Shown here piece by piece: positions 25,083 to 25,584 of a DNA stretch of 30,231 bases. The stretch is from a virus (taxonomy: Duplodnaviria > Heunggongvirae > Uroviricota > Caudoviricetes). Position numbers and translations under genes: made by a program. Each line of letters starts with the position of its first letter. Positions within the stretch are counted from its first letter, which is position 1. The stretch lies in IMG/VR virus record IMGVR_UViG_2695420421_000005; one strand, written 5' to 3'. The notes below the pieces were generated by a model, which had not been told where the DNA came from, searched no databases, and saw only the letters and a program-made list of their open reading frames with translations.

Positions 25083-25584
25083 TCTCCCGCATATTGCCAG
25101 CATGGCTTTTAATGAGCCGCTGATGCTTGAACCCGCCTATGCGCGGGTTTTCTTTTGTGCGCTTGCAGGCCAGCTTGGGATCAGCCGCCTGACGGATGCA
25201 GTATCCGGCGACAGCCTGACTGCCGGAGAGGCACCCGCGGCGCTGGCGTTATCCGGTGATGATGACGGACCACGACAGGCCCGCAGTTATCAGGTCATGA
25301 ACGGCATCGCCGTGCTGCCGGTGTCCGGTACGCTGGTCAGTCGGACGCGGGCGCTGCAGCCGTATTCGGGAATGACTGGTTACAACGGCATTATCGCCCG
25401 TCTGCAACAGGCTGCCAGTGACCCGATGGTGGACGGCATTCTGCTCGATATGGATACGCCAGGCGGAATGGTGGCGGGGGCATTTGACTGCGCTGACATC
25501 ATCGCCCGTGTGCGTGACATAAAGCCGGTATGGGCGCTGGCAGTCGCTGGACATATGCTGGCGGTAAGCAATGGAAAGGGCTGA
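25063..25584 (+). pseudogene. C: Truncated head protease/scaffold gene C (lambda-like): first ~160 codons then an unrelated 13-codon tail and stop
   Basis: GTG start and [41 protein letters not shown]... match lambda gpC up to ...[11 protein letters not shown]; sequence then switches to the 3' end of an endolysin gene. Confidence 0.85.

Follow-up and report, generated by a model that had tools for sequence, protein, structure and literature searches.

A C/lysozyme gene fusion at a one-base gap in a Shigella sonnei draft assembly: a very probable false scaffold join between a linear plasmid-prophage and a chromosomal prophage remnant

The fusion of a lambda-type head gene C to a lysozyme gene in a viral sequence of 30,231 nt (IMG/VR record IMGVR_UViG_2695420421_000005, the whole of which is hereafter called the window) is in all likelihood a scaffolding error made when short reads were assembled into a draft, with no DNA junction behind it. 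The window is the whole of contig CXFA01000066.1 from the draft Shigella sonnei assembly GCA_001257695.1, and a base-by-base comparison revealed an N in the public record at position 25542, where the window shows an A. We are highly confident that this gap ties the contig of a linear plasmid-prophage to the contig of an unrelated prophage in the chromosome. The N lies exactly at the boundary of the two sequences, and elsewhere the two flanks go on separately, each in a conventional way of its own. The left flank is also redundant, as its last 8 kb recur on a second contig of the same assembly.

The joint in the public record

The open reading frame across the joint (25063-25584) encodes the first 160 residues of C and then 13 residues that are out of frame. 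Its product is deposited as CSS90317.1, annotated as "minor capsid protein C [Shigella sonnei]", and an exact protein look-up in the whole collection retrieved it from one contig only, CXFA01000066.1 itself. The fusion protein lacks the Peptidase_S49 domain, found at positions 150-297 of full-length C, and keeps only a weak NfeD1b_N match. Its C part stops just before the NDMNCSAG motif, the serine of which we take to be the catalytic Ser166 of lambda gpC.

A sequence-only reading of the window had described this site as a chimeric joint, with C truncated at about 25541 and the last ~90 nt of a SAR-endolysin gene starting at about 25543, followed by Rz/Rz1, HNH, terS, terL and portal genes. 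As far as the flanks are concerned, this description was accurate. C ends after codon 160 at 25541, and the next determined base opens the final 92 nt of a lysozyme gene of the R21 type, whose intact parent has an N-terminal Gly/Ala-rich signal-anchor-release (SAR)-like segment. All of the downstream genes were identified by Pfam domains or by a lipobox, and the window does carry two packaging modules, one with Nu1, gpA, gpW and Phage_portal_2 domains and the other with a Terminase_4 terS, TerL and Phage_portal (Table 1). Megablast also splits the window exactly at this point. The contiguity of the joint, on the other hand, did not survive the comparison with the record.

This comparison covered window positions 15063-30231, so that further Ns are possible in 1-15062, and over these 15,169 bases position 25542 was the sole mismatch between the window and the public copies (L003, L028 and L035). 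The record reads "gggcgctggc n gtcgctgga", and the window GGTATGGGCGCTGGC-A-GTCGCTGGACATATGCTGG. The A matches neither parent sequence, and the parents have zero bases in common at the break. Since the base is an N in the record, the joint is a one-N scaffold gap in which no junction was sequenced, and since the N is shown as an A in the window, the fusion reading frame appears continuous. A continuous determined sequence through the junction, as a recombination joint would provide, is thus lacking. Two explanations that we had considered for the orphan A, ligation of A-tailed fragments and recoding of N to A by the assembler, were superseded by the N in the record.

Microhomology of the CGCTGG type had also been proposed for the joint. 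The hexamer is present on both sides, at 25535-25540 (from C) and at 25545-25550 (from the lysozyme gene). Because both copies are retained and the parents have no base in common at the break, it is not crossover microhomology. In simulated random joints between the same two sequence sets, a flanking repeat of 6 nt, no more than 12 nt away from the joint in either direction, occurred in 1.4% of cases. The repeat is therefore mildly unusual, was spotted post hoc, and is irrelevant once the junction is an N.

No record spanning the joint was recovered elsewhere. Among 5,426 complete Escherichia coli genomes searched by megablast, none spans 24900-26200 across the joint. The two sides match separately, 24900-25541 with lambda C-type S49 peptidase DNA at up to 100% identity, and 25543-26200 with lysozyme RrrD/lysis protein/HNH DNA at up to 99.8%. 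Neither PLSDB nor the phage genomes hold a joint-spanning record, and a junction 35-mer found no match in IMG/VR or JGI metagenome contigs, a weak result given that the pattern carried A for N. Independent recovery of the junction from other assemblies or isolates, as expected for a recombination joint, was thus not obtained.

Table 1. Features of the window and of related records. Positions refer to the window unless a record is named.
Feature	Position	Strand	Evidence or matching record
Perfect 21+21 nt palindrome, hairpin telomere read-through	1-42	.	100% complementary arms, no spacer
Protelomerase (TelN/TelK type), 635 aa	213-2120	+	Pfam TelK_N, TelK_muzzle, ResT-TelK_cat, TelK_stirrup
RepA, N15-type replication protein, 1331 aa	4325-8320	-	Relatives: "plasmid replication protein, CyRepA1 family"
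Plasmid-prophage lysozyme, 165 aa	17288-17785	+	PF00959, E = 4e-46
Stretch duplicated in the same assembly, 7,994 nt	17548-25541	+	CXFA01000117.1 (L027) 1-7994
Nu1-A-W-B lambda-type packaging/portal genes	20836-25082	+	Pfam
Nu1	20836-21381	+	Pfam Phage_Nu1
A	21356-23281	+	Pfam GpA_ATPase/GpA_nuclease
W	23278-23484	+	Pfam gpW
B	23481-25082	+	Pfam Phage_portal_2
C 5' part (S49 head protease/scaffold), codons 1-160, left-hand contig end	25063-25541	+	
Residual scaffold gap, one N (A in the window)	25542	.	Public record
Chromosomal R21/RrrD-type lysozyme gene, last 92 nt, right-hand contig start	25543-25634	+	
Rz, 154 aa	25631-26095	+	PF03245
Rz1 within Rz	25851-26033	+	Lipobox LVVVGC
HNH endonuclease	26138-26488	+	HNH
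terS, P27-family	26610-27104	+	Terminase_4
terL	27101-28834	+	TerL_ATPase/TerL_nuclease
60-aa ORF	28846-29028	+	
Portal gene, truncated, 343 aa	29153-30184	+	Phage_portal
~65 nt past portal homology, contig end at repeat	30166-30231	.	
Hairpin-end handling in related drafts	L043 10459-14224; L038 16201-19904		

The plasmid-prophage and the chromosomal remnant

The left part of the window (1-25541) belongs to an N15-like linear plasmid-prophage, of which it forms one arm, and this element is an ordinary telomere phage-plasmid. It opens with the palindrome ACATAATTCCCCATTATACGC followed by GCGTATAATGGGGAATTATGT, in which the contig reads 21 nt around a hairpin telomere. This telomere, at 21/22, marks the physical end of the molecule: a related plasmid record, NZ_JBRAXZ010000005.1, terminates exactly at window position 22, and related plasmid records in general start or end at 22-115. 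The palindrome core CCATTATACGCGCGTATAATGG presumably resembles the telO of N15. The protelomerase gene adjoins the palindrome at the molecule end. Its Pfam domains were taken from an identical protein, and the relatives annotate it as "protelomerase family protein". Together with the RepA-type replication protein, the relatives carry lambda-like head and tail genes, and the DNA of the left arm agrees at 97-98% from end to end with plasmids of 45-50 kb from E. coli that encode a protelomerase and CyRepA1; its identity to a complete S. sonnei plasmid is likewise 97-98%. In the N15-like relatives, among them the complete S. sonnei plasmid CP061364.1, the portal gene is followed by intact C, D, E, FI and tail genes. 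The likeness to the N15-like telomere phage-plasmids of Enterobacteriaceae extends from the protelomerase, the terminal hairpin palindrome and the 1331-aa RepA to the cB/cro/Q region, the lysis cassette and the lambda-type Nu1-A-W-B-C head genes. We note no difference of importance, apart from the window holding one arm only, which follows from the false join.

Several other features were observed in this arm and its relatives. A 27-nt element with the palindromic core TTATAGCTGGCTATAA occurs in four copies (9179-9231, 10019-10045 and 14011-14037), two of them in tandem between an XRE-type repressor gene and the cro/Q genes. These elements resemble operators at which the repressor of the plasmid-prophage would bind. 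A gene pair on the minus strand (14350-14948), Gp49 (RelE/ParE-like) and HTH, is toxin-antitoxin-like and conserved in N15-like relatives. Direct repeats of ~58 and 128 nt with 88-91% identity (18620-18806 and 20405-20592, 1.8 kb apart) bracket genes for proteins of 286 and 149 aa between the lysis cassette and cos/Nu1. A lambda-like cos region lies at 20643-20700 (TACGGGGCGGAAGGCGCGCGGGTTTTCGCTATTTATGAAAATTTTCCGG). In the relatives, sopAB adjoins telN; in the present element, sopAB and the second telomere would belong to the other arm, beyond the window. Related draft assemblies show either a fold-back at the telomere with an inverted duplicate of the telN region, or telN joined directly to sopAB (Table 1), and these are two assembler treatments of hairpin ends.

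Many entries in nr for S49 peptidases are labeled "partial" and stop within a few codons of residues 160-172 (P0003, P0008 and P0009). Draft contigs thus often break near this point in lambdoid C genes, which probably reflects a recurrent mosaic or repeat boundary.

The right part of the window (25543-30231) is a conserved, IS-truncated and defective prophage remnant of the HK97/P27-type, located in the chromosome. It is identical at 4689 of 4689 positions in five complete chromosomes of 4.8-5.0 Mb, presumably from S. sonnei. In all five, an intact holin gene and an intact 165-aa lysozyme gene lie upstream of the right part, the gene order is the same, the portal is truncated to the same 343 aa, and an IS4-family element follows directly downstream. 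The homology to the intact portal gene stops at about 30165-30167. Given the IS4-family gene at this place in the complete chromosomes, the window ends at a repeat, as is usual for short-read contigs. The chromosomal genes that flank the truncated portal and IS4 element vary by genome (bamE/recN/nadK or pheA/tyrA), which suggests IS-mediated rearrangement.

The two elements have related lysozyme genes. The plasmid and chromosomal copies are 94% identical in DNA, with 34 differences, and they have exact runs of 116 nt (17507-17622) and 62 nt (17624-17685) in common.

The second copy, the independent assembly and competing readings

Contig CXFA01000117.1 (13,119 nt) repeats window positions 17548-25541 in its first 7,994 nt, with 99.975% identity and two mismatches. 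Past position 7994 it continues into an intact C of 439 aa, followed by D, E, FI and tail genes. The parental arrangement, an intact C continuation, therefore persists in the same assembly, contrary to what a recombination joint would lead one to expect. The two contigs differ at 18091 and 18106 only, where CXFA01000066.1 has A/A and CXFA01000117.1 has G/G. A/A is found in all relatives, and the protein encoded by the G/G version is private to CXFA01000117.1. The corresponding G/G 76-mer, however, is a common allele of other prophage Rz genes, with at least 99% identity in 246 E. coli genomes. The differences fit two independent consensus procedures working where paralogous copies tangle. A second real 8-kb copy was considered and rejected as the main reading, since the abundance of the G/G 76-mer in other Rz genes indicates mixing of paralogous copies.

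An assembly made from raw reads with different software, the Logan assembly of ERR028706, gives the same picture. Its contig ERR028706_76 (9,915 nt) is 100% identical to window positions 20643-25541 and runs unbranched into intact C-D-E. Across the entire collection, only three contigs carry the exact 641-aa A allele: the Logan contig, CXFA01000066.1 and CXFA01000117.1. The rarity of this allele indicates that ERR028706 very probably represents the isolate of GCA_001257695.1 or a near clone. As unitig-based contigs end at branches, a fixed junction into 4.7 kb of unique chromosome would be expected to break the Logan contig at 25541. The start of the Logan contig at 20643, a few bases ahead of the presumed cohesive-end site, could be either a repeat boundary or the result of reads from cut phage DNA.

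As explanations, the sequence-only reading had left a choice between an illegitimate recombination event involving two prophages, a hybrid that is defective, and an artefact arising from assembly or from a construct. Of these, only the assembly artefact is upheld. A construct artefact of the window is contradicted by the public contig, which has the same arrangement apart from the N in place of the A. Recombination between two prophages is at odds with the N at the joint and with the intact C-D-E on another contig, and its left partner was mistaken, being an N15-like linear plasmid-prophage and not an integrated lambdoid prophage. The comparison with relatives that had been suggested, for an intact C continuation, found it in the N15-like plasmids, in CXFA01000117.1 and in the Logan contig.

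On its face, the site does resemble the novel joints of lambdoid phages (Hendrix mosaicism) and the products of homology-facilitated illegitimate recombination: the joint is within a gene, the modules are unrelated, two temperate phages are involved, and a homologous lysis cassette lies nearby as a possible anchor. It differs from joints of the Hendrix type in that no junction was sequenced, the parents have zero bases in common, the parental arrangement is kept, and the joint does not recur. We regard it as very improbable that the N hides a real junction. Such a junction would mean that a plasmid-prophage segment of ~7.9 kb, from the lysozyme gene to C codon 160 and comprising the lysis cassette, cos, Nu1-A-W-B and the 5' part of C, was inserted into the lysozyme gene of the chromosomal prophage, with one end anchored in lysozyme and the other illegitimate, and that it coexists with the intact plasmid, the assembler having threaded the plasmid arm in place of the upstream chromosomal flank. 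This would explain why the right contig picks up the lysozyme gene at the counterpart of plasmid position 17694, it would account for the read pairs between both contigs that a scaffolder link implies, and the CGCTGG repeat on either side of the gap, with its low frequency among random joints, and the two versions of the 8-kb stretch would agree with it. Yet the record holds only an N at this place, the Logan contig passes 25541 unbranched where a fixed junction would have broken it, and the G/G variant is better explained by mixing of paralogues than by a second copy. In addition, the lysozyme gene is intact in five of the five complete chromosomes with an identical right part, and the fusion protein occurs in no other assembly.

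The chance that the contig is literally correct is close to nil. It would then represent either a hybrid linear replicon or a telomere-capped chromosome, made of an N15-like arm and an HK97-type module, in other words a defective hybrid prophage formed by illegitimate recombination. The contig itself is all that speaks for this, and every point made against a hidden junction applies here as well. Moreover, if a linear plasmid recombined with a circular chromosome in one crossover, the chromosome would become linear and a reciprocal joint would be needed. What the assembly holds instead is the plasmid's intact continuation, and any further replicon that relied on this RepA and this telomere system should be incompatible with the intact plasmid.

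Origin of the join and its meaning

A false scaffold join may have come about as follows, although we infer the exact software path. In a pipeline built on tools such as Velvet, SSPACE and GapFiller, pairs of reads derived from the lysis cassette of the chromosome would have linked the plasmid and chromosomal contigs through the two lysozyme runs (116 and 62 nt) that both have in common. At the time of linking, the plasmid contig would have ended in its lysozyme gene, and the chromosomal contig would have begun in the 3' end of its own, so that both would have been placed in a scaffold with a small gap. A greedy gap filler run over many iterations could then have grown the left edge by ~8 kb along the plasmid path, duplicating CXFA01000117.1, without ever reaching the right edge. 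An overshooting left edge of this kind would produce an 8-kb duplicate that starts inside the lysozyme gene, an arbitrary end in C, and a minimal N. When a gap has been filled beyond its estimated size but not closed, one N is left in its place. This N would finally have been displayed as an A when the window was prepared.

Judging by its accession style and species, GCA_001257695.1 probably stems from the pipeline of Page et al. (2016), in which Velvet assemblies are scaffolded with SSPACE, relaxed stepwise to five linking pairs, and the resulting N gaps are treated with 120 iterations of GapFiller (PMC5320598). GapFiller works by lengthening the edges of contigs through overlapping k-mers (PMC3446322). 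Page et al. themselves caution that greedy programs of this kind "can lead to false joins", and their data included 299 S. sonnei assemblies with a mean of 405 contigs (PMC5320598). The window has much in common with such joins, namely an N between different replicons and a flank that duplicates another contig, and the IS- and prophage-rich S. sonnei genome and the accession style fit the output of this pipeline. It differs in that the gap is a single N, with no visible run, and in that the use of the pipeline is our deduction.

Some details fit this course of events less well. A scaffolder requires several linking read pairs, which implies some connection in the reads and is a point against a false join. 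CXFA01000117.1 starts at 17548, which is 75 nt before the first downstream lysozyme difference and corresponds to a k of ~76, an even number, while the allowed values of k are odd. None of the de Bruijn boundaries that the lysozyme differences predict coincides with the start of the right contig at 25543. The CGCTGG repeat beside the gap, given its 1.4% frequency among random joints, is a further point against a false join. It is conceivable, if rather unlikely, that the join is false but owes its link to a handful of chimeric fragments in the library, or to recombinants that were rare in the culture, and not to the lysozyme repeat. Neither edge of the gap (25541 and 25543) is a boundary that the repeat predicts, and as few as five read pairs suffice for a join in the pipeline (PMC5320598). 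A link of this origin, however, would leave the 8-kb duplicate of CXFA01000117.1, which starts inside the lysozyme gene, unexplained, whereas such a duplicate is the expected product of a gap filler overshooting from a contig that ended in lysozyme. Whichever the source of the link, lysozyme repeat or chimeric fragments, the verdict of an artefact is unchanged.

Neither element beside the gap is out of the ordinary: one is an N15-like telomere phage-plasmid, the other an IS-decayed prophage remnant of the HK97/P27-type. The biological significance of the joint is small. It matters for data hygiene. A single N in the public record, shown as an A, was enough to give a convincing chimeric gene, and other windows may hide gaps in the same way. 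With a gap of one N, GenBank treats the scaffold as one contig and annotates a fusion protein across the gap; as one-N gaps are not flagged as assembly gaps, the artefactual CSS90317.1 stands in nr as a "minor capsid protein C". The pipeline family in question accounted for ~30% of the bacterial assemblies in GenBank by 2016 (PMC5320598). For joints between mobile elements in drafts of this kind, single Ns and duplicated flanks should be checked before recombination is called.
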